Shown here piece after piece: positions 9,689-22,540 of a DNA stretch of 49,566 nucleotides (its first letter is position 1; each line of letters begins with the position of its first letter). Both the position numbers and the translations under genes were made by a program. The notes below the pieces were generated by a model. That model did not search any database. It was not told the origin of the DNA and worked only from the letters and a program-made list of their open reading frames with translations. Source of the stretch: Candidatus Micrarchaeota archaeon (GTDB lineage: Archaea; Micrarchaeota; Micrarchaeia; Burarchaeales; Fermentimicrarchaeaceae); assembly GCA_013425405.1 (NCBI GenBank), contig JACCLF010000023.1, positions 1-49,566 on the forward strand. The letters run 5' to 3'.

Positions 9689-10573
9689 TTACACACCTGC
9701 AAGCAGCCTGAAGATATCCCTCACACCTGGTGCCAGGCCGAATATTATGAGCAGAAGCAGGATATAATTTTTCTCATCTCTCTTGTCTTCTGAAGTTTCA
9801 ACAACCCAAACGGCAAGGGTTGAGAAGAGAACCTTCACAACATAGAATGCAAACATCGTTCCGAAGATTGTTCCGAGCGCGCCGCCTACAACGTGCTGCT
9901 CGAAATAGGCTGTTCCGCCCATGAAGAGGTTTATTGCCACATAGGATGCAGCTCCATCAAGGGAGTGGGAGAGAACAACAATGAGCTGTGAAAGGCCTGC
10001 CTTTATTTTCATTTTTTCCAGAAGCATCTTACCGGAAACCAGGCCGAAAAATGAGAAAAGCAGGATGAGCATGACGTGGAACCAGTTTCTCATAAGTGGC
10101 AGTAATAGGATGAGGTGAGGAAGAAGCAACACCAGGGCGAACACCGGCAGCAGATCCATCCTCCTTATCCTGTTGAAGAAGATTATTGAAAGGAATGTCA
10201 GTATGCCTATTAGGACATAAATCCCGGGAGTTGCGGTGAGGAAGCCGTACTCGTATATGCGGGAGCTGCCGACAACTCCATACATGCCAAAAAGGGTTGA
10301 GCCGCCCTGCATGAATTGATTAGGAAGTTCTGCAGAGCCACTTCCTGTTGCATCGGTTACGACTCTCACAACCGAGCCGAGGAGTATGAATGGTATGACG
10401 CGTAGAATGAATTTCTCGTCCAGCTTTACTTTCTCTTTTTTGAGAATTTTGAAGAATATAAATGCAAAGAACAACGCTATGACTGCATAAACCAAGGTGT
10501 TGATTATATTGTAGCCCGTCCTATCGTAGACCGGCTTTATGAAGTATGAGTTAATGAATTCTGCAATATCCAT
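9689..10573 (-). CDS. DUF63 family membrane protein
   Basis: GYNIINTLVYA, RVVTD, TPGIY, HSLDG, YFEQH, GLAPGVRD. Confidence 0.85.
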   Translation of the reverse strand: MDIAEFINSYFIKPVYDRTGYNIINTLVYAVIALFFAFIFFKILKKEKVKLDEKFILRVIPFILLGSVVRVVTDATGSGSAELPNQFMQGGSTLFGMYGVVGSSRIYEYGFLTATPGIYVLIGILTFLSIIFFNRIRRMDLLPVFALVLLLPHLILLLPLMRNWFHVMLILLFSFFGLVSGKMLLEKMKIKAGLSQLIVVLSHSLDGAASYVAINLFMGGTAYFEQHVVGGALGTIFGTMFAFYVVKVLFSTLAVWVVETSEDKRDEKNYILLLLIIFGLAPGVRDIFRLLAGV

Positions 10574-10574
10574 A

Positions 10575-11087
10575 TCATCTCTCCCAAATTTCTATGAATC
10601 TGTCAACTATTGCATCAAGAAAGCTGGAGCGGTAGGTTATTATGACTCGTGCCATCTCATCGGGTTTAACTAGATTGTACATTACCTCCTTTCCCCTCCT
10701 TTTTTTCTTGGCAATGCCCGAATCGAGCATCTTGTCAAGATACCATGAAGTAGTTGCCGGGGAGAGCTGGAGCTCTTTCATTATGCCCTTGTGATTGAGC
10801 TCCTTGCCTATGAGAAGCATAATTGCAATATGCCTTATGGGCTTCTGCCTAAGCAGGGAGAGGAGCTTCTTCTCTCTCTCCGTGAAGAGCCCTATAGCAT
10901 AATACCTAGCATATTCGCCGTCTCTCTTCTGTATTATCGTGCCGTCATTTGAAAGATTGGTTAGGTGGTACTGCAGCGTGCCCACCGGTAGCTTCAGATG
11001 CCTCTGCATCTCCCTGAAATGGCTTCCTGGGAAACGCAGGATGTGCTCGTATATCTGCTGGCGCTGCTCCAGACCCTGGACTCTCAT
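10575..11087 (-). CDS. Double winged-HTH transcriptional regulator (COG3398-like)
   Basis: PGSHFREMQR...GTLQYHL and LSPATTSWYL helix-turn-helix units. Confidence 0.8.
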   Translation of the reverse strand: MRVQGLEQRQQIYEHILRFPGSHFREMQRHLKLPVGTLQYHLTNLSNDGTIIQKRDGEYARYYAIGLFTEREKKLLSLLRQKPIRHIAIMLLIGKELNHKGIMKELQLSPATTSWYLDKMLDSGIAKKKRRGKEVMYNLVKPDEMARVIITYRSSFLDAIVDRFIEIWER

Positions 11088-11090
11088 ATT

Positions 11091-11363
11091 CTACGCCCTC
11101 ACCACCGCAAAGAATATCAGTGCCAGCGTCAGGAAATCAAGAAAGTTTGAGAGCGATAATGTGAGGATGGACTGCTGCTCACTTGTCAGTTTTATGAGAG
11201 TCCTTGCAAAGTAGGCGACAAATGCCAGTGAGACCAGCAGGATAATCCTCCTCCTATTCTTCCTGTATGCTAGAAATGATATCAGAGCCATCCCCAAAGC
11301 AAAGATGACCGTTGACACACCCACTAGCAGGTTAAAACCAGTTATGTATTCGTCCATTTTCAT
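11091..11363 (-). CDS. Small 3-TM membrane protein, coupled to the wHTH gene
   Basis: Hydrophobic ORF with SFLAYRK and LDFLTLALIFFA; 3-nt gap to next gene. Confidence 0.7.
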   Translation of the reverse strand: MKMDEYITGFNLLVGVSTVIFALGMALISFLAYRKNRRRIILLVSLAFVAYFARTLIKLTSEQQSILTLSLSNFLDFLTLALIFFAVVRA

Positions 11364-11965
11364 CCCCCCAAGACTTTAACAATTTCCTCGCCAAACCCCT
11401 TGGCTGATGACGGCCCATCCGCCGTTACAAGCTTTCCATCCCTCTCAACAGGTTTTCCGGTGTAGACCGCGCCTGCGCGTTTCAGAGATGAGATGGTATC
11501 ATTATCTGGGAAGGATGTGACATTCCTCCCCCTCACAATATCCGCAGCCGCAAGTATCCTCGGCGCAATGCACACGGCGGCAACAACCTTTCCGGAGCTG
11601 CTCGCATCCTTTGCAAGCTTCACCACAGCGGGATTTTCCGGCAGGCCGTTTGTCTCAACTCCCTGCCCGCCAATGAAAACAACTGCGTCATACTGGGAGA
11701 GATTCGCCTGCGAGACAAGCAGGTCTGGCTTGACCCTCCCCCCAAGCATCCCCACTGCTTCATTCATACTCGTGCTTGCTATGTAAACCCTGAAGCCTGC
11801 ACTCTCAACAGCTTCCTTGCTGTGGAACAACTCCTCATCACGGAAATCCGACGGAGCTATGACGAAAAGCACCTTTCTCATCCCCTCACCCCCAGAGGCT
11901 TTTTGCCCAGCCTGTTGCGCACAGCCGAGCAGCAGAATTGCAAACATGAGAATATGAATCCTCAT
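11360..11965 (-). CDS. DJ-1/PfpI family protein with lipoprotein-like signal
   Basis: DFRDEEL, YDAVVFIGGQG, AAVCIAP, VTADGP; start MRIHILM with LLLGC. Confidence 0.88.
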   Translation of the reverse strand: MRIHILMFAILLLGCAQQAGQKASGGEGMRKVLFVIAPSDFRDEELFHSKEAVESAGFRVYIASTSMNEAVGMLGGRVKPDLLVSQANLSQYDAVVFIGGQGVETNGLPENPAVVKLAKDASSSGKVVAAVCIAPRILAAADIVRGRNVTSFPDNDTISSLKRAGAVYTGKPVERDGKLVTADGPSSAKGFGEEIVKVLGG

Positions 11966-16450: not shown

Positions 16451-18076
16451 ATGAAGTATAAGAAGGAAAAACATGCCACTAGAGGACACGCTACGACGAC
16501 TGCTCCGAAAAGTCTATTCGGAAATCCCTTGACGATTGCACTGGGTTTAATTGTGATAGTGCTATTGGCGTACATCGGCTACAACTCCATGAATATACGA
16601 CTGCCGCCACCTAACGGCAACAGCGATACGGGCATTATAGATCAAACCCCGCCCACCAAGCAGGCAAAGGCGACAATAGAGCTTTTCGTAATGAGCAAAT
16701 GCCCGTATGGGGTTCAGGCTGAGACTGCAGTGAAGAAAGTCATTGACAAGTTTGGTGGTGAGGTGAACCTGAGCCTGCACTTCATAGTGAGTGAGACAGG
16801 CACTGGAGGGTTCAGCAGCCTGCACGGAGACACTGAGGTTGCGGAGGATTTGAGACAGGTCTGCATAATTAAGCACTACCCACAGAACCTTATCAGCTAT
16901 CTCTCGTGCATAACTCCCGGCTACCCGAATTTCGAGAATGTTTGGGAGAACTGCGCAACCCAGAACCATATTGATGCTAATGTCATTAAGAGCTGCAGCA
17001 CAGGTAGTGAGGGGGCATCATTGCTGAGTGACAATATAAAGAGGACGGACGAGCTGAATGTTCAGTCTTCACCTATAATCTATCTGAACGGCAACGCGTT
17101 CGGCGGGTCGGCTACAGAGAACTCGATTACAAAAGGCATATGCGCAATTATCCCCGGAAGCGACACCTGTAAGAACCTCCCGCCCGATGTTGCTGTTGGG
17201 CTTACAATTGTGAATGATAAGAGCTGCATGATATGCGACACCAGTCAGATATTGAGCGTGCTGAACGGTCAGTTTGAGATGACCAACCTGACAGTTAGGA
17301 ATATCGAGTATTCAAGCAACGAGGGGAAGGCATTGATTAAGGAGTTCAATCTGACTGGAGTCCCTGCATACATATTCGATGCTTCAATTAAGAAGCACCA
17401 GAGCTACGACAGCATTGGCAGGTACTTACTCAATGTGAGTGATTCGTACCTCCTAAACCCGCAGGCCGTGCCACCTGTTAAACTCCTGAATGCAGTTGAG
17501 AGTAACAACACAATTGTGCTCTTTGTCATGAGCCACTGCCCCTACGGAGTGCGCGCCGAGAACAACACGAAAGCTCTGCTGGATGCGCTTCCTGATGTGA
17601 AATTTGGAGGGCTGCGCTTCATTGCAACTCAGAACCCGGATGGGAGTTTCTCAAGCATGCATGGAGCAGATGAAGTTGCGGAGGATTTGAGACAGGTCTG
17701 CATAATGAGGTACTATCCAGCAAAGATCGTGGACTATACTGTCTGCATATCTGCGGATTACGCAAACTCTGGCAACATATGGCAGAACTGCAGCAACCAA
17801 AATGGCATTGACACGAACAAGATACAGACATGCGCCACTGGTGATGAAGGAAAGACACTTCTGAAAGATAACATAGCGCTCGCAAGCTCCTTGGGAGTGG
17901 GTTCTTCACCAACTATCCTCCTGAACAACAACACTCTGCTCAGCGGCTATTACGCAGCATCTCCTGAGCTGATGAGGCAGGTGATATGCGGTTATAGTCC
18001 CACTCTAACTGGCTGCAATAAGACTTTGAGCGGCTCGGGAGTCACTACACCAGCAAGCGGTGGTGGATGCGGCTAG
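16451..18076 (+). CDS. Membrane-anchored multi-thioredoxin-fold (DsbA/GILT-like) protein with duplicated domain
   Basis: N-terminal TM; two FVMSxCPYG...HGxxEVAEDLRQVCI...SSP domains flanking a CMIC...GVP domain. Confidence 0.75.
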   Translation: MKYKKEKHATRGHATTTAPKSLFGNPLTIALGLIVIVLLAYIGYNSMNIRLPPPNGNSDTGIIDQTPPTKQAKATIELFVMSKCPYGVQAETAVKKVIDKFGGEVNLSLHFIVSETGTGGFSSLHGDTEVAEDLRQVCIIKHYPQNLISYLSCITPGYPNFENVWENCATQNHIDANVIKSCSTGSEGASLLSDNIKRTDELNVQSSPIIYLNGNAFGGSATENSITKGICAIIPGSDTCKNLPPDVAVGLTIVNDKSCMICDTSQILSVLNGQFEMTNLTVRNIEYSSNEGKALIKEFNLTGVPAYIFDASIKKHQSYDSIGRYLLNVSDSYLLNPQAVPPVKLLNAVESNNTIVLFVMSHCPYGVRAENNTKALLDALPDVKFGGLRFIATQNPDGSFSSMHGADEVAEDLRQVCIMRYYPAKIVDYTVCISADYANSGNIWQNCSNQNGIDTNKIQTCATGDEGKTLLKDNIALASSLGVGSSPTILLNNNTLLSGYYAASPELMRQVICGYSPTLTGCNKTLSGSGVTTPASGGGCG

Positions 18077-18164
18077 ACTTCCATCAAATTCTCGCGGTCT
18101 ATTTATTTTTTATTGATTTTCTCTAGAGTAAGCATTATTCCGTATGAAGTCCTCTGCGAGAATT

Positions 18165-18344
18165 CTATAAGCTTATTGCATGCACAGGGCAGTTGTCCGC
18201 CGCAGCCTTGCAATCGCATTTCTTGCATCCCGTAGGGTTGTATGCCTCAGACTTGCCGTCACTTCCAATTCGGAATACGTCTGGGCAGAGCGAGACGCAA
18301 GCTCCGCAGCCTATGCACGTATCCTTGTCAACCTTTGCTACCAT
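18165..18344 (-). CDS. Ferredoxin (59 aa, absent from ORF track)
   Basis: MVAKVDKDTCIGCGACVSLCPDVF...AADNCPVHAISL; GGAGGT SD upstream. Confidence 0.92.
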   Translation of the reverse strand: MVAKVDKDTCIGCGACVSLCPDVFRIGSDGKSEAYNPTGCKKCDCKAAADNCPVHAISL

Positions 18345-18366
18345 CTGATTACCTCCAAAGATTTAA

Positions 18367-18383
18367 ATATAACTGAGTTATAT
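18367..18383. promoter_or_regulatory. Palindrome ATATAAC-TGA-GTTATAT in the ferredoxin/iscS divergent promoter
   Basis: Perfect 7-3-7 inverted repeat; near-copy at 15136. Confidence 0.6.
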
Positions 18384-18443
18384 ATATCTAACAATATCTC
18401 TTGTGAATAAACACTTTTAAAAGCATTTGTGGGAAGTGAACAT

Positions 18444-19634
18444 ATGAAGAGGATATATCTGGATCATTCCGCGACAAGTCCTCTTGACAAGGAGGTTTTT
18501 GAGCAGATGAGGCCCTACTTCAGCTCAAAGTTTGGCAACGCATCCAGCCTGCATTCATTTGGGAGAGAGGCATATGAGGCTGTTGAGAATGCAAGGGAGA
18601 AAATTGCCAAGGTTCTGAACTGCAAACCGACAGAAGTTTTCTTCACTTCTGGGGGGACAGAGGCAGACAACTGGGCGCTGAAGGGAGTTGCACTTGCAAA
18701 GAAGGATGGCAGGCACATCATCACAAGCCCCATAGAGCACCACGCTGTGTTGCATACCTGCCAGTACCTTGAAAAGAACGGCTACAGGGTGACATATCTT
18801 CCTGTTGATAAATACGGTTTCGTGAAGCCAGCCGATGTTGAGGATGCAATAAGGAAGGACACCATTCTCATATCTGTCATGCACGCAAACAACGAGATAG
18901 GAACTATTGAGCCCATTGAGGAAATCGGCAGAATTGCCAAGGAAAAAGAAGTGTATTTCCACAGCGACGGGGTGCAGAGCTTCTGCAAGATTCCAACAGA
19001 CGTGAATAAGCTAAACGTCGACATGTTCTCAATTTCAGCACACAAGTTCTACGGCCCCAAGGGCATTGGCGCTCTCTATATACAGGAGGGCACAAAAATA
19101 GAGCCCCTGCTTCACGGGGGCGGGCATGAAAGGGGGATGCGCTCCGGCACTGAGAATGTGCCAGGCATAGTCGGGTTTGGTGCAGCTTCAGAGCTGGGCC
19201 TGAAGAGGATGGGGAAAGATTCTGAGAAGATGATTTCATTGAGGGACAGGCTCATAAGAGAGACTCTGAAGATAAAAGATTCCTGGCTCAACGGGCACCC
19301 TGTGAAAAGGCTCCCGAACAACGCTCACTTCTGCTTTGGATTGATTGAGGGGGAGTCGCTCATACTTTATTTGGATGAGAGAGGAATAGCTGCATCAACC
19401 GGCTCTGCATGCTCTTCGAAGTCATTGGAACCGAGCCACGTTCTTCTTAGAATTGGCCTGAAGCATGAGGAGGCGCACGGCTCCCTAAGAATTACACTGG
19501 GAAGGGAGAACACAAAGGAAGAAATAGAGTATGTGGTAAAGGTTCTACCGGGAGTTGTTAAGAAGCTGAGGGCAATCTCTCCATTCAAGAGCAGGAAGGA
19601 GCTGTCCTCGTTCAAATCCACGGAGGAGGATTGA
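18444..19634 (+). CDS. iscS: Cysteine desulfurase IscS/NifS
   Basis: YLDHSAT, TSGGTE, IEHHAV, SAHKFYGPKG, RSGTEN, STGSACSS. Confidence 0.95.
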   Translation: MKRIYLDHSATSPLDKEVFEQMRPYFSSKFGNASSLHSFGREAYEAVENAREKIAKVLNCKPTEVFFTSGGTEADNWALKGVALAKKDGRHIITSPIEHHAVLHTCQYLEKNGYRVTYLPVDKYGFVKPADVEDAIRKDTILISVMHANNEIGTIEPIEEIGRIAKEKEVYFHSDGVQSFCKIPTDVNKLNVDMFSISAHKFYGPKGIGALYIQEGTKIEPLLHGGGHERGMRSGTENVPGIVGFGAASELGLKRMGKDSEKMISLRDRLIRETLKIKDSWLNGHPVKRLPNNAHFCFGLIEGESLILYLDERGIAASTGSACSSKSLEPSHVLLRIGLKHEEAHGSLRITLGRENTKEEIEYVVKVLPGVVKKLRAISPFKSRKELSSFKSTEED

Positions 19635-20015
19635 ATGTATTCCGAGAAACTCATGAAGCTTTTTAGGAAGCCGCACAACTTCGGCAAGATAAAGAATCCA
19701 GATGCGGTGGGAAAGGTCGGGAACCCTCTGTGTGGTGATGTAATGTATTTATACCTGAAAATTAAGGACAACAGGATAAAGGATGTGAAGTTTGAAACCT
19801 TCGGCTGCGCGGCTGCAATCGGCACCAGCAGCATCATCACGGACATGATTAAGGGGAAGACAATTGAGGAAGCCCTCAAAGTGAGCAAAGACGACATTGC
19901 GAAGGAGATCGGGGGCCTGCCTCCGATAAAGATGCACTGCTCTGTGCTGGCAACTGAGGCGTTGAAAAAGGCGGTTGAGGATTACAGGATGAAGCAGAGG
20001 GGAAAGAAGAAATAG
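19635..20015 (+). CDS. iscU: Fe-S scaffold IscU/NifU
   Basis: GNPLCGD, FGCAAA, LPPIKMHCS. Confidence 0.95.
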   Translation: MYSEKLMKLFRKPHNFGKIKNPDAVGKVGNPLCGDVMYLYLKIKDNRIKDVKFETFGCAAAIGTSSIITDMIKGKTIEEALKVSKDDIAKEIGGLPPIKMHCSVLATEALKKAVEDYRMKQRGKKK

Positions 20016-20167
20016 ATCACAGGTAAATCCGCAGAAAGCCTAGCAAAATCCGGTTTTTCAGGTGTTTTAAATTACTACTGGAGATACCCGGCTTGCGGAA
20101 TAATGGCACCAGTGTGGACAGGACATTTATTTAAATACAGAAAATGAGCAATTCTAGTGGTGGGATT

Positions 20168-20929
20168 ATGGCCAATAAAGCAGACGAGTTCATTAAGGAA
20201 TTGGAAGCAGGCGATGTCTTTTATTATGAAATGCCACCGAAAGAAAGAAAGAAAATCCTGGAATTGTTAACTTCGCCGGAAAACAAAAAGAAAGCCCTCG
20301 ATTCGCTGGTTGCTGCAGCTAAGGGCAAGCCTATTACTGCAAGAGAAGCGGCTGCAGATTTGATTGATGCAATTAGGGATGAGGGTGCAATAAAAGAAGT
20401 CGCAAAGTTCTGGATGCCATTTCTTGACACCGAGTATGGTGAAAAAGTGACTGGTGATTATCCGTTTTCTCAGTATGAGAGATTTAACAGAAGACAGGCA
20501 GTGGAAATCTTCGAGAGGATGAGGTGGCCACCTGCCGCAGACCATGAAGCCCTGCTTATTAAAAATGGGGGATTGAAAGACCTTGACTTCATCCAAGTCG
20601 GAGCTATCTTTAATGTAATAGAAAAATGCGGCAGCGAAAAGCATGAGGATGTTGTCCTAAAGGCAACAAAAGAGGCCATAGCGGCAAACGATGATGTGAA
20701 TCTCTCCTTTGGTACACTAAGGGCGATTGGGACTGGAAAGTCAAAAGCGGTGCTGAATGAATTCATAGACAAAAACAAAAACAACCAGGATCCGTATGTT
20801 AGAGTATACGTTGAGGAGGCCCGCGAAGCAGTAAAGAAGATTGAAAGTAGAATTGGGGTTTCTGCAAAGCCAGCCGAGAAGACGCTCAAGGATGCAATGA
20901 AAAGGGGAGAGAAAAAGGTGCCTGCTTAA
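20168..20929 (+). CDS. Hypothetical helical (HEAT-like) protein
   Basis: Long ORF; AREAAADLI, TLRAIG, DPYVRVYVEEA resemble HEAT-repeat helices. Confidence 0.65.
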   Translation: MANKADEFIKELEAGDVFYYEMPPKERKKILELLTSPENKKKALDSLVAAAKGKPITAREAAADLIDAIRDEGAIKEVAKFWMPFLDTEYGEKVTGDYPFSQYERFNRRQAVEIFERMRWPPAADHEALLIKNGGLKDLDFIQVGAIFNVIEKCGSEKHEDVVLKATKEAIAANDDVNLSFGTLRAIGTGKSKAVLNEFIDKNKNNQDPYVRVYVEEAREAVKKIESRIGVSAKPAEKTLKDAMKRGEKKVPA

Positions 20930-20974
20930 ACTGATTTAAAGACCAGTTTCACTCGGGTATGATTTACGTAATCG

Positions 20975-21019
20975 TCATATCCTTTCATACCCCACTCCGA
21001 GCTCCTTCAGAAACCCAAT
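20975..21019 (-). pseudogene. Stranded alternative 3' end of dtdA (IGFLKELGVGYERI*)
   Basis: Aligns without gaps to the dtdA terminus IGFLKETSLDYRKI* (21588-21632). Confidence 0.7.
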
Positions 21020-21030
21020 TTTACTTTGAT

Positions 21031-21552
21031 TTATGTTACCAATACTATTTTCTTTGCGGTGGCCAATGGTGGAACTTTCGCGACTATTTGATCATAATCT
21101 AGTTCAGATGTGCAATTGGCTCCCAGTATTTCTTCAATCTGAGCGCAGTCGTAGACTGTAAGCTCGTAGATGTAGGTTCCTGGAGTTGTGAAGTTTCCTG
21201 GCACGCAAAACGCACCTCTCTCTGTTATTTCGCACGGCACGAAATAACCACCCGTAGTACTGCCAGCTAATTGAGTACCAATTGATGTACTTTTGCAATC
21301 CGTTTTATAACCTTCCCTTCTGCAAATCATCACTTTATAGGCTTTGAAAGGAGAGCCGTAGTTTTCAACTATGTATTTTGCTTTAAGGATTTCACCAACA
21401 GTGAAAGATTTTTTTGTGATATTTATAGTTAAATTAAGTCTAGTTGTGATTCCTTGCTTCGTCACATTTTCCTCTGGTTTTTCAGATTGCTGGACACAAC
21501 CACTAAATAACAAAATAGTTATAATTAGAATGACTTTAGATGTAAGTTTCAT
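21031..21552 (-). CDS. Hypothetical lipoprotein-like exported protein, AT-rich
   Basis: LLFSGC signal; beta-rich Ig-like body with paired Cys. Confidence 0.7.
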   Translation of the reverse strand: MKLTSKVILIITILLFSGCVQQSEKPEENVTKQGITTRLNLTINITKKSFTVGEILKAKYIVENYGSPFKAYKVMICRREGYKTDCKSTSIGTQLAGSTTGGYFVPCEITERGAFCVPGNFTTPGTYIYELTVYDCAQIEEILGANCTSELDYDQIVAKVPPLATAKKIVLVT

Positions 21553-21587
21553 GTCCCTGATTTATAATTTTTGGTTTATAATTGTTG

Positions 21588-22361
21588 TTATATCTTTCTG
21601 TAATCTAGACTCGTCTCTTTCAAGAAACCAATAATCTTCTCCCTCTGCTGCTTGTTCATCCCCTTCCAGTCCAGCAGGGCAATTTCTATTTTCTCCGCAG
21701 ACTTCTCTACTCCCTGCCTGAAGCACTCAAAATCAATCTCATCAATGTAATACTTCGGGAGCATATGCCCCACTGCATACCTGCCTTCGAGAATCGCTTT
21801 TGTGAATGAAGGTGCATAGTGCCCCCCGCCGATGCCGAAAGCAGCAGGAAAAGTTTCCTTTGACTCAAGTATTTTCATCACGGAGCGCGCGACTATTTCT
21901 GCAGCCCTTTCATTCTTCCACTCCTTTTCAGAGCTGCCTATCTCCACGAAAATTGAGGGTGCATTTGTCAAGGGGCCATGGTGGTCAACTTCTGCACACA
22001 CCTGCCAGCCCAGATCATTCAATGAATTCATCTCCTTCAGCACAACTTTCAGTTTGCTGGGCCAGCAGATGCACAGTGTTTTTGGTTTTCCCCCAAGCTC
22101 CGCCTTCCCCCAGTTGCCCTGCGTGTGCGCAGTGAGGCACGACTTCCCAGTCTCGCTCCTGTGCTTGCTTATGAAAACAAGAAAGTCCGTCTCCTTGTCA
22201 TAAAGATGCTCTGCATCGACAATCTTTGTTTCAACCTGAATAAGCTCCAGCTCTCCTTTCACCCATTTATCTCCTTTCTTCTCAAAGCCGAACAACTTTA
22301 TCAGCTTGTCCGCTATATTTTTACCAGCCACATCCAGTGACGAGAAAACAATTATTGGCAT
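21588..22361 (-). CDS. dtdA: D-aminoacyl-tRNA deacylase (DTD2/DtdA)
   Basis: SKHRS, LTAH..GN, EVDHHGP, FVEIGS, GIGGGHYAP, LDWKG. Confidence 0.92.
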   Translation of the reverse strand: MPIIVFSSLDVAGKNIADKLIKLFGFEKKGDKWVKGELELIQVETKIVDAEHLYDKETDFLVFISKHRSETGKSCLTAHTQGNWGKAELGGKPKTLCICWPSKLKVVLKEMNSLNDLGWQVCAEVDHHGPLTNAPSIFVEIGSSEKEWKNERAAEIVARSVMKILESKETFPAAFGIGGGHYAPSFTKAILEGRYAVGHMLPKYYIDEIDFECFRQGVEKSAEKIEIALLDWKGMNKQQREKIIGFLKETSLDYRKI

Positions 22362-22483
22362 TCAAACTCACACCACATAGGCAAATTTTTTCTTGTTGTA
22401 CTCTTCCAGCCTTTCGCTTCCGCAATTGCCCGAGGGATTGTTACAAGCAGTTGCCCGGTCTTGAGCTCCTGGATTTTCACCAT
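22352..22483 (-). pseudogene. Truncated AbrB/MazE-like gene
   Basis: MVKIQELKTGQLLVTIPRAIAEAKGWK, after which similarity to the 23196-23366 paralog breaks off. Confidence 0.6.
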
Positions 22484-22540
22484 AATACCACAACCTATAA
22501 AAAGAATAATGAGATTAATAATAACTAAGGATTCGGAAAC
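22474..22540 (+). repeat. Leader repeat, copy 1 (direct repeat of ~23357-23423)
   Basis: TTTTCACCATAATACCACAACCTATAAAAAGAATAATGA shared, followed by similar sequence to TCGGAAA. Confidence 0.85.

Follow-up and report, generated by a model that had tools for sequence, protein, structure and literature searches.

The window, a stretch of 49,566 nucleotides from a single contig of a tiny symbiotic archaeon (Candidatus Micrarchaeota), carries the gene for the archaeal D-aminoacyl-tRNA deacylase, dtdA, whose product matches PF04414 over residues 56-253 with 228.6 bits (curated cut-off 33.6). Downstream of dtdA lies a small lipoprotein gene, and behind it an orphan piece of sequence that resembles the end of dtdA. 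Two convergent genes, one of them NifU/IscU-like, complete the locus (Table 1).

Table 1. Features of the dtdA locus, in window coordinates
Feature	Position	Strand	Remarks
dtdA (D-aminoacyl-tRNA deacylase, archaeal type)	21588-22361	minus	257 aa; PF04414, E=6.9e-68
Native dtdA body, codons 1-243	21633-22361	minus	97.4% nt identity to same-species contig L041
Apparent replacement dtdA tail in use, IGFLKETSLDYRKI + stop	21588-21632	minus	AT-rich; left insert end
Spacer, 35 nt, with two ATTATAAA boxes, the first at 21575-21582	21553-21587	minus	sequence reading
Cargo: lipoprotein gene, 173 aa	21031-21552	minus	no Pfam family
Right insert end, 11 nt, from cargo stop codon to orphan	21020-21030	minus	sequence reading
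Orphan, very probably the displaced native dtdA end, IGFLKELGVGYERI + stop	20975-21019	minus	
Flank, from orphan stop to convergent 261-aa gene	20930-20974		homologous to relatives' flanks
261-aa gene, older part of strain-variable block	20144-20929	plus	no Pfam family
NifU/IscU-like gene, convergent neighbour	19635-20015	plus	PF01592, E=1.2e-45
Block missing from same-species empty allele	20000-21617		BLAST ends; near-identity really stops at about 21636

The orphan stands at an offset of 613 nt from the tail that dtdA now uses, in the same frame and with its stop codon in the same register. An earlier note, made from the sequence alone, had singled out this pair, and on recomputation the coordinates and sequences of both tails were as it gave them. 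The two are equal in length, both open with ATTGG, and agree at 27/45 nt and 8/14 residues; five of the eight common residues (G, F, L, K and Y) are written with different synonymous codons. The tail in use is also the AT-richer one, as claimed, with a GC content of 31.1% vs 46.7% in the orphan. Joined to the orphan, the dtdA body yields a 257-aa protein, a length seen in relatives.

The resemblance stands out against genome-wide controls. When the last 14 aa of 1417 ORFs (at least 100 aa long) were compared with all stop-terminated 14-mers up to 3 kb downstream, the dtdA/orphan pair was joint top with a score of 42. All other pairs scoring at least 35 were reciprocal tandem-paralog pairs, with a single exception at 38, which involves an HTH regulator gene on contig C21 of the same genome. 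An upstream control with 1384 ORFs gave no non-paralog match of 35 or more. Similarly, the final 93 nt of dtdA from 15 relatives, the window left out, were made into a DNA profile; run over about 200 kb of loci, it ranked the orphan as its best non-genic match (profile positions 49-91 on 21019-20977, E=0.034), followed by a match with an E-value of 0.28. An independent assembly of the likely source run produced a 1572-nt contig that spans 20931-22502 with 0 differences, and the arrangement of tail, cargo and orphan is therefore no binning or assembly artefact.

Relatives retain the locus in its earlier states. On the same-species contig L041, 97.4% identical over 5080 nt, the site is empty and dtdA abuts the NifU-like gene; BLAST pairs L041 1-5043 with window 26693-21618 and L041 5073-5343 with window 19999-19731. 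A contig from run X3 is likewise empty, joining 19994 to 21629 with 48 other letters between them. The NifU-like gene abuts or overlaps the dtdA stop in C1, which with C39 represents a second haplotype of the region in the same bin, as well as in G003, G005, L041, L048, L050 and L051. Across the dtdA body only 16/726 nt (21636-22361) differ from L041, and divergence jumps at the tail border, from 13/200 nt just before it to 27/48 of the last nt. The ending TSLDYRKI is found at 0/31 loci of relatives (30 relatives and, on C1, the second copy in the bin) and in 0/120 database homologs, and a degenerate-pattern search for KETSLDYRKI followed by a stop hit 1/401 class genomes, the window's own (G000). 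The earlier note had named orthologs ending in TSLDYRKI, together with an orphan no better than controls, as the outcome that would speak against it; these counts, and an orphan that beats its controls, show the opposite. Its suggestion that such a tail might occur in other settings led nowhere beyond the window's own genome among those 401. Since the tail in use was found in no other dtdA gene, has a GC content of 31% vs 47% and coincides with the jump in divergence from L041, it is, judged by its sequence, foreign.

What lies behind the orphan completes the picture. The 261-aa gene also belongs to the strain-variable block, a point missed by the earlier note, and is absent from L041; homologs occupy the same place in L042 and L049 (81%), G004 (69%) and G001 (36%). 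L042 is an intermediate, with the 261-aa gene and without the lipoprotein gene, and the flank after its real dtdA stop is like that behind the window's orphan. In the window the orphan stop is followed by GATTACGTAAATCATAC, in G001 and L042 the real dtdA stop by the similar GATTGCGTAAATCGCAT, and the part of the window's flank ending in CTCGGGTATGATTTACGT matches what lies behind the 261-aa gene in L042, L049 and G004. Relatives, in other words, place the real dtdA stop and its flank where the window has the orphan. The orphan matches 9/14 residues of the sister species' tail in use and, by eye, about 27/33 nt of the orphan that G004 has of its own. Because of the empty site, the position of the relatives' flank and the lack of TSLDYRKI in any other dtdA found, the 613-nt AT-rich block, consisting of a new tail, a TATA-box spacer and one gene, evidently entered dtdA at one point. 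We have little doubt that this history is correct and that the orphan is the former dtdA end; the insertion, its borders and the foreign nature of the tail can be read directly from the compared loci, as can the empty and intermediate alleles. The earlier note had proposed just this, with lipoprotein gene and tail in use as an insertion into the 3' end of dtdA and the orphan as the displaced native end. Both parts are upheld.

The cargo encodes a protein with a signal peptide, a lipobox-like cysteine (...FSGC), six conserved cysteines and a beta-sandwich. In alignment A3, G18-C19 and six further cysteines are conserved. An AlphaFold2 model has a mean pLDDT of 80.1, mostly at least 85 from residue 41 onwards (block means), and its structural matches are generic FnIII/Ig-like domains at a TM-score of about 0.4. 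With a GC content of 37.9% and a GC3 of 32.8%, the gene falls at the 1.4th percentile of 651 ORFs of at least 200 aa in the genome. Homologs exist in 7/401 class genomes and the genomic ones sit away from dtdA, for example behind rlmH in G021, where no orphan tail follows, and near purM in G002. A search of 5.8 billion proteins returned the window's own protein and one 61% homolog (P0122, encoded on a metagenome contig of 2,429 nt) only, and alignment A3 run over all GTDB species representatives retrieved only two that were already known. No relative of the lipoprotein was found on viral contigs, the cassette was found nowhere else in 29 genomes of the order or 401 of the class, and no donor lineage was found in which dtdA is directly followed by the lipoprotein gene. 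Upstream of the cargo, the first ATTATAAA box begins at -30 from the lipoprotein ATG, within a spacer that carries a tandem 14-nt repeat (D8). Genome-wide, TATA-like hexamers occur at -30 to -28 at 8-9% per position vs 1-3% elsewhere (524 long ORFs), which suggests that the boxes are the putative promoter of a leaderless lipoprotein transcript.

Two further cassettes share this anatomy of a tail, 5-35 nt, one small membrane or secreted ORF, 1-11 nt and an orphan, so that the recurrence, too, is seen directly. In the sister species (G004), dtdA contains a 301-nt insert with a DUF2061 gene. Its tail in use, ending KELNIGYKKI, and its orphan, ending KEGGVGYEKI, agree at 21/33 nt and have GC contents of 30% vs 48.5%; beyond the orphan, the flank agrees at 135/151 nt with the one that follows the real stop in L043. 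On contig C21 of the window's genome, the HTH regulator gene has received a 510-nt insert with a 157-aa Zn-ribbon/TM ORF. Here the tail in use (...LMKLIEERGG) and the orphan (...LMKLIEERGA) agree at 22/33 nt, the orphan is by eye identical to the real tail of G005 at 31/33 nt, and the cargo is absent from the loci of 13 relatives and from C39. Both inserts hold a single ORF. TATA-like boxes lie at -30 in the window (in the spacer), at -29 in C21 and at -25 in G004, the last two inside the tail, and the orphans are by eye free of them; in these two cases the recoded tail thus appears to hold the promoter of the inserted gene. The box at -25 in G004 is off the genomic peak of -30 to -28. The DUF2061 cargo, described as not AT-poor at third positions, has a GC3 of 0.62.

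The junctions of the three cassettes all differ. The repeats begin with ATTGG in the window, with AAGGAG in G004 and in the region of ATGAA in C21, where the longest exact runs are 5, 6 and 5 nt; the two in dtdA are 4-5 codons apart, and the ends of the three cassettes have no common motif. From three different junctions and the failure to find an integrase or resolvase gene, we favour a displacement of the 3' end over short homology by foreign orthologous DNA. Differing junctions without an end motif fit homology-guided recombination at least as well as they fit an integrative element. Foreign DNA would have been taken up by the resident gene where the two sequences correspond, at codon -14, between ATT and ATTGG. 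It would have comprised the final 14 codons of dtdA from a diverged source, a short spacer with the promoter, and the small lipoprotein gene next to them. From then on dtdA would read into a foreign, AT-rich and partly synonymous tail and stay whole, and the native tail would lie dead 613 nt downstream. The tail would travel with the cargo because in these compact genomes a promoter lies within, or immediately after, the end of the preceding gene, and the same conserved gene end would provide the short homology that guides insertion. Joining would be the work of host recombination or repair acting on this homology, with no need for an integrase encoded by the element; it may have proceeded through one crossover with a fragment that had become circular, or through a template switch that later returned.

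Displacement of this kind resembles what has been described for Rhs, CdiA and T6SS effector-immunity loci, where C-terminal displacement is proposed to proceed via homology-facilitated illegitimate recombination (PMC5361080). There, a new 3' end and the gene following it arrive together and the old end is orphaned downstream, without a dedicated recombinase and with a conserved anchor upstream. The tips of those systems, polymorphic toxin domains paired with immunity genes, change in function, whereas here the targets are housekeeping genes (dtdA and the HTH regulator) and the protein end is conserved. Moreover, the cargo here is an unrelated small protein of the membrane or cell surface, only one orphan is present rather than an array, and there is no sign of a long donor tract ahead of the tail. 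In Rhs proteins the tips have a higher AT content than the cores. Upstream of the window's tail there is no sign of a highly diverged donor tract (13/200 nt vs L041, which may differ from the true recipient allele), and over the last 85 nt of the dtdA body the window's bases that differ from L041 occur, by eye, in other relatives.

Several observations weigh against a mechanism without integrase, among them the unsuccessful search for a donor lineage, the incompleteness of the genome, the box at -25 and the GC3 of the DUF2061 cargo in G004, and the rarity of such events. Furthermore, the right junction equals the left one in 3/3 cases, which is natural for attP x attB and would be a coincidence under ordinary homology-facilitated illegitimate recombination. 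In addition, the identity at the junctions is 5-6 nt, with 60-67% over 33-45 nt, a poor substrate of the RadA type. Taking both sides together, we give an integrase-free, homology-guided displacement of the 3' end an even chance of being what happened.

These coinciding junctions are what the chief alternative would explain, namely a minimal or decayed integrative element whose recombinase was lost or acts in trans and whose attP mimics the last 14 codons of dtdA, the 613-nt block being a non-autonomous cassette or the remnant of an island. The model for it is e14 in E. coli icd, where the insert brings a substitute 3' end that keeps the housekeeping gene intact, the native C-terminal fragment (icdC) persists as a pseudogene beyond the insert, and most differences between the two ends are conservative (PMC13626634). 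The window shows several features of this type: 45-nt repeats of the target's 3' end including the stop (21588-21632 and 20975-21019), an intact gene and an empty site in a relative. However, e14 is a prophage of 15 kb that encodes an integrase and excises upon SOS induction, and here the insert has 613 nt, one cargo gene and no recombinase found in it or in the genome; the host, unlike that of e14, is a DPANN archaeon, the repeats are 60% identical and exact identity at the junction is limited to 5 nt. Phage 21 acts at icd as e14 does.

The architecture itself, with its likeness to attL and attR, speaks for an integrative element: the repeat has a sharp start and extends as far as the stop codon, dtdA has been made whole again, and its native end sits orphaned on the far side. 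So does the purity of the one-point insertion in 3/3 cases, as does the fact that dtdA was hit twice independently by different cargo, and both the cargo and the tail have a higher AT content than the genome, which is common in mobile DNA. There is archaeal precedent as well, since in a survey of thaumarchaeal elements 14/68 were integrated at the extreme 3' end of conserved protein genes, with sites verified by a relative's empty site (PMC6563490). They share with our case the archaeal host, the 3'-end target in a conserved protein gene and the empty-site check; yet they are multigene elements with an integrase or casposase and short exact att or TSD repeats, in contrast to single-gene blocks, recoded repeats of 33-45 nt and no integrase or Cas1 found.

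Several results argue against an integrative element. The earlier note had taken the insert to lack an integrase, and rightly: it contains a single 173-aa ORF without Pfam family and no recombinase gene. The genome (G000) gave 0 matches to PF00589, PF16795, PF00239 and PF01867, with positive controls matched for the first three, and no integrase, resolvase or Cas1 gene was found in it. It is a 91% complete bin with 6.5% contamination, so that a recombinase could have escaped assembly, or a virus, a plasmid or the host archaeon could supply one in trans. With three different junctions and no common end motif, an integrative element would need three specificities, and the presumed crossover identity is just 5-6 nt, where an exact block of about 7 bp or more would be looked for. 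With 1-11 nt separating the cargo stop from the orphan, a deleted interior could not have fitted on that side. The lipoprotein was found neither on a viral contig nor with its tail in a second context. The 11-nt right end shows no homology to the stretch of dtdA that precedes the tail (p>0.9, 5000 shuffles), and the upstream extension of orphan homology expected of an attP spanning the crossover was not detected in dtdA (p=0.94-0.98) or in C21 (p=0.38-0.81; local alignments, 5000 shuffles). Precise excision would join ...GAGAAGATT to ATTGGGTTTCTG..., and a circle would join 21020-21030 to 21632; neither joint is present in the assembled contigs, but as such contigs drop rare variants, this speaks for neither side. 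The earlier note's idea of a mobile element that targets dtdA was not borne out, with no integrase, resolvase or Cas1 found, no copy of the cassette elsewhere and three differing junctions, and we regard an integrative element as possible though rather improbable.

The remaining alternatives are much weaker. A local tandem duplication of the dtdA end, as a long target-site duplication in an unrelated insertion followed by divergence in place, would account for copies equal in length and register and for the one-point insertion. This reading is already contradicted by the data and we consider it very improbable: the copy free to decay stays like the real tails of relatives (31/33 nt by eye for C21 and G005, 135/151 nt for G004 and L043, best profile match for the window's orphan), and the copy under selection holds all the change, 11-18 nt per tail and AT-biased, where drift predicts the opposite; nor do the insert ends have terminal inverted repeats. 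A chance resemblance, or an assembly chimera of co-occurring strains, is hardly credible, even with a second haplotype in the bin (C1, C39) and several relatives in the sample, given the genome-wide and profile controls, the independent 1572-nt contig across orphan, cargo and dtdA, an intact cargo ORF that fits exactly between the tails, and a tail in use that occurs in no relative.

Other known mechanisms were considered and set aside. A transposon or casposon insertion is at odds with the lack of inverted repeats pairing the two insert ends, with flanking repeats that are 60% identical rather than an exact duplication, and with the failure to find Cas1 in the genome. An integron gene cassette does not agree with the mere 11 nt between cargo stop and orphan or with the absence of a PF00589 match. 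In a diversity-generating retroelement, differences would be confined to adenines, and here they fall on G, C and T positions of the orphan (GGG to GGT, CTC to ACG). Inverted repeats at the block borders (19993-20007 with 21635-21649) are no longer than background pairs of the region, and the same is true of the match between the NifU-like C-terminus LKKAVEDYRM and the tail's LKETSLDYRK (71% over 31 nt). An older nested relic beside the NifU-like stop (20017-20060, ...ILLGFLRIYL) went undetected in the profile search.

DPANN archaea have genomes of about 1 Mb with few recognisable mobile elements, and yet membrane and surface proteins vary between their strains. By what means such genes are gained without breaking packed essential ones is poorly understood, and three cases with before and after states point to one route, by which one gene comes in together with a new end for the gene before it. 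If this route is free of integrases, it offers a general and checkable rule for gene gain in compact genomes, and annotators obtain a signature (recoded tail, one ORF, orphan tail) to date and delimit recent acquisitions. If the blocks are instead mini integrative cassettes served in trans, they represent a new kind of archaeal mobile element. Extending the displacement reading beyond these cases, we tentatively propose that archaea with ultrasmall genomes may gain single genes without an integrase, each gene travelling with the last 9-15 codons of its upstream neighbour and the promoter embedded in them. The conserved end would be a portable address that pairs with the ortholog, leaving the gene unbroken and an orphan behind, and a hot spot of the process would lie between dtdA and the NifU-like gene; this generalization is speculative, and we would not be surprised to see it fail.

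Such events are infrequent among the genomes covered. Orphans of any kind accompany 2/45 dtdA loci, by eye none surround 10 DUF2061 loci, and scans of the whole chromosomes of two relatives (G001, 1.14 Mb; G006, 0.54 Mb) revealed no further case, so the process is rare. The word length of the scan matters: 14-mers miss the orphan of G004 when relatives are scanned, 11-mers and 9-mers detect it, and with 9-mers one control reaches 29, the two genuine pairs scoring 32 and 30. Both replacement tails of dtdA have some resemblance to tails of a distant dtdA clade (P0110, KELNIEIKK; P0120, KTTSLEIKK), which was noted by eye only and judged unsupported or due to chance. In some strains, the junction between dtdA and the NifU-like gene also adjoins an intein with a homing endonuclease.

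The dtdA gene of the window ends in IGFLKETSLDYRKI*, and a second version of this end, the orphan, stands downstream beyond a small lipoprotein gene (table). At 27 of their 45 nt and at 8 of their 14 residues the two tails are identical; five of these eight residues are written in different synonymous codons, and GC content is 31% for the tail in use and 47% for the orphan. Tail, 35-nt spacer between the dtdA stop and the lipoprotein ORF, and lipoprotein gene make up an insert of 613 nt with 36% GC. Coordinates, residues and codons were re-read and bear out the recoded tail and its orphan as the earlier note had described them; controls against chance and artefact were likewise passed.

Features at the dtdA locus and intein positions in the neighboring gene
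Feature	Position	Strand	Remarks
dtdA	21588-22361	minus	257 aa; PF04414, E=6.9e-68
Lipoprotein ORF (cargo)	21031-21552	minus	173 aa; signal peptide, Cys after ...LFSG; no Pfam family
Orphan	20975-21019	minus	reads IGFLKELGVGYERI*; begins 11 nt 3' of the lipoprotein ORF stop
Intein of NifU/IscU-like gene	window site 19731-19734 (without intein); L032 6038-7558; L041 5343-6483; L035 about 10287-11427		

As a control against chance, the last 14 residues of 1417 ORFs of the genome were compared with all stop-terminated peptides up to 3 kb downstream. The dtdA pair scored 42, joint top of the scan; one other pair besides reciprocal tandem paralogs reached at least 35, and no non-paralog match did so in an upstream control of 1384 ORFs. 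From 15 relatives, the window not included, a profile was made of the final 93 nt of dtdA; in about 200 kb its top non-genic match was the orphan (E=0.034, matching profile positions 49-91 colinearly), and the next match stood at 0.28. Among contigs assembled independently from a run holding 97% of the sampled words, one of 1572 nt spans 20931-22502 with 0 differences to the window. Adjoining the NifU-like stop, a further frame (20017-20060, minus strand) reads ...NRILLGFLRIYL*, where TGCTAGGCTTTCTG is like TGCTCGGCTTCCTG of the dtdA tails. This peptide may be a tail displaced far earlier; the profile search with the relatives' dtdA ends did not detect it.

Comparison with relatives reveals the earlier states of the locus. 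dtdA is present in 56 of 61 related genomes and meets a convergent NifU-like gene (PF01592) stop to stop in C1, a contig of the same bin, and in G003, G005, L041, L048, L050 and L051. L041, from the same species, matches the window at 97.4% over the 5080 nt that end at 21618, resumes at 97% from 19999 leftwards, and lacks the entire 1.6-kb block 20000-21617; a contig from a second run has the same empty joint with 48 other letters between. In L042, L049, G004 and G001 a homolog of the 261-aa gene (20144-20929) occupies the site without the lipoprotein, and the flank after the real dtdA stop in G001 and L042 (GATTGCGTAAATCGCAT) resembles that after the window's orphan stop (GATTACGTAAATCATAC). 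Gap content correlates with tail type: dtdA has IEFLxxLKLxYExI-type ends where the gap is empty and L[GN]FLEVLG[VL]RYEKI-type ends where it is occupied. Judged by these alleles and matching flanks, the orphan is the former dtdA end, from an allele with the 261-aa gene alone. With its body joined to the orphan, dtdA again encodes a protein of the usual 257 aa, so the 613-nt insert entered at one point. The empty allele of L041 and the flanks of L042 and G001 support the proposed insertion into the dtdA 3' end that supplies a recoded C-terminus. The TSLDYRKI-type end itself is absent from the relatives: it occurs in none of 31 relatives' loci and none of 120 database homologs of dtdA, and a degenerate pattern for KETSLDYRKI* matched solely the window's genome among 401 genomes of the class. 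A contig from the source run tracks the window to 20969 and then continues as the L049/G004 flank (GAAAATCGGTAAAATCGGT...), so an allele that has the 261-aa gene but lacks the window's orphan junction is present in the same sample too.

The earlier note had also suggested looking for other duplicated C-terminal peptides downstream of core genes, and the second non-paralog match of the genome-wide scan is such a case. It lies on C21, a contig of the same bin (17743-19140; locus L057 4744-6141), about 6 kb past the window's end in G001 gene order, a putative linkage since the bin has two haplotypes in this region. Here a 295-aa HTH regulator (PF01381) ends in ...ARELMKLIEERGG* and is followed after 5 nt by a 157-aa ORF of no Pfam family, with CxxC pairs (Zn-ribbon) and a C-terminal hydrophobic transmembrane helix by eye. 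The orphan, ...LMKLIEERGA*, comes 1 nt after the stop of this ORF. Tail in use and orphan share 22 of 33 nt, nearly all codons differ synonymously, and GC is 33% versus 48.5%. The regulators of C39, another contig of the bin, and of 13 relatives' loci all terminate in an LMKLIEERG-type motif and lack the cargo; the orphan matches the real tail of G005 at 31 of 33 nt (by eye), and the flank beyond it continues like that of the relatives. The bin (0.95 Mb, 91% complete, 6.5% contaminated), which includes the window as contig C14 and belongs to the Micrarchaeota going by the database names of close homologs, carries second, diverged copies of both genes, dtdA on C1 (14895-15656, 82% identical to the window's copy) and the regulator on C39 (12445-13326, 93% identical to that of C21), with normal tails and without cassettes. 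As they fall on the same G001 interval as the window and C21, two related populations have been co-binned.

A third case was found with an 11-mer scan in dtdA of the sister species G004 (its contig C15; L031 10276-10609), where a 14-mer scan of relatives had missed the orphan. The tail in use, KELNIGYKKI*, precedes a gene for a DUF2061 membrane protein of 83 aa (PF09834, E=1.8e-13), and the orphan KEGGVGYEKI* stands 6 nt past its stop and 301 nt downstream of the tail in use; the two share 21 of 33 nt, at 30% and 48.5% GC. In the 151 nt after this orphan, 135 positions are identical to the flank after the real dtdA stop of L043, which together with L047 and L049 represents the pre-insertion type. 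Overall, an orphan is present in 2 of 45 dtdA loci, those of the window and G004 (scores 32 and 30; control maximum 29), and scans of G001 (1.14 Mb) and G006 (0.54 Mb) gave no additional case.

All three inserts follow a common layout of replacement tail (27-45 nt) and stop, 5-35 nt, a single short ORF encoding a membrane or secreted protein, 1-11 nt, and orphan. In the window's genome, 8-9% of 524 long ORFs have a TATA-like hexamer beginning at each position from -30 to -28 before the ATG, compared with 1-3% at other positions, a peak suggesting mostly leaderless transcripts. The inserts carry such boxes at -30 within the spacer (window, ATTATAAA), at -29 within the replacement tail (C21, AAATTAATA) and at -25, somewhat off the genomic peak, again within the tail (G004, TATAAAAA); by eye, the orphans have none. 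As the putative cargo promoter sits in or just behind the end of the upstream gene, tail and cargo gene probably form one functional unit, an arrangement that would account for the joint movement of tail and gene as well as for the tail's high AT content and synonymous recoding. In the window's spacer, a tandem 14-nt repeat (21558-21585; TGATTTATAATTTT / TGGTTTATAATTGT, plus strand) is the source of two TATA-like boxes.

Searches with the lipoprotein found relatives in 3 of 29 order genomes and 7 of 401 class genomes (best 39%), together with one 61% relative among 5.8 billion proteins, and none on viral contigs. Six cysteines are conserved in the alignment. The predicted model is a beta-sandwich (mean pLDDT 80.1, block means mostly at least 85 from residue 41) with generic FnIII/Ig-like structure matches alone (TM about 0.4), and a role in surface binding or adhesion is a guess.

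The nearest known parallel is the e14 element of E. coli, which sits in icd and has icdC as its orphan (PMC13626634). Of 68 integrated thaumarchaeal elements, 14 are described as lying in the distal 3' portion of protein genes (PMC6563490). Rhs, CdiA and T6SS loci are described as undergoing integrase-free C-terminal displacement that leaves orphan ends, for which homology-facilitated illegitimate recombination was proposed (PMC5361080). Unlike these systems, the present cases are single-gene units of 0.3-0.6 kb in housekeeping genes of a DPANN archaeon, their new tails conserve the protein end, and two of the three tails appear to contain the cargo promoter.

How did the inserts arise? The earlier note had proposed an integrase-less cassette or a decayed element at dtdA. 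The integrase-less part stands; for the rest we favor, at roughly an even chance, host-mediated displacement of the 3' end by DNA of a diverged relative in which the cargo comes after the ortholog. Joining would occur on short homology, through one crossover involving a circularised fragment or through template switch and return, both of which would yield a one-point insertion. We prefer this reading because the inserts lack a recombinase, their junctions differ and identity is short. Against it, the homology is short and 60-67% identical, and the donor arrangement was not found in 401 class genomes, among all GTDB species representatives or with the KETSLDYRKI* pattern. Homology-facilitated illegitimate recombination in its classical form, with a long anchor, seems a poor fit, since comparison with L041 gave no sign of a highly diverged donor tract ahead of the tail in use.

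A mini integrative cassette inserted site-specifically by a recombinase acting in trans is a more doubtful, though possible, origin. The architecture resembles attL/attR and all three inserts are pure one-point insertions, but none has a recombinase, and PF00589, PF16795 and PF00239 have no match in the 91%-complete bin. Moreover, the three junction sequences differ, the two in dtdA lying 4-5 codons from each other; a common end motif was not seen, exact identity at the junctions is 5-6 nt, and the cargo stop abuts the orphan. Drift after local duplication is rejected, as the neutral copies, the orphans, are the conserved ones; so are a DGR, as changes are not at adenines, and a transposon or casposon, with no terminal inverted repeats, inexact repeats and no Cas1. 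The same 0.95-Mb genome, in which Cas1 and tyrosine and serine recombinases had no match, carries nine TnpB/Cas12f-like genes on contigs C8, C9, C15, C20, C48 and C56 (ORFs of 136-400 aa, with PF07282 scores above cut-off).

Positions 20844-20864 and 21008-21027 form an inverted repeat some 20 nt long, with one mismatch and one gap. One arm, AAAGTAGAATTGGGGTTTCTG, is inside the 261-aa gene towards its 3' end; the complement crosses the junction of insert end and orphan. Because homologs of the 261-aa gene natively carry a similar sequence, the repeat may be a coincidence or joining microhomology.

The gap between dtdA and the NifU-like gene holds different genes in each relative: in G001 a 106-aa ORF resembling, by eye, half a TATA-binding protein (L032 8876-9196) and a 344-aa ORF related to the window's 261-aa gene, and in G006 a 197-aa multi-pass membrane ORF of no Pfam family (L033 9442-10035). 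In G001, G005 and L041 the NifU/IscU-like gene contains, at about residue 33, an intein of ~1.1-1.4 kb with a LAGLIDADG homing endonuclease (LAGLIDADG_3 in G001, E=2.1e-17), from which the window's gene is free. In the empty allele, this endonuclease polymorphism is a few hundred nt away from where dtdA ends and could make recombination there more frequent.
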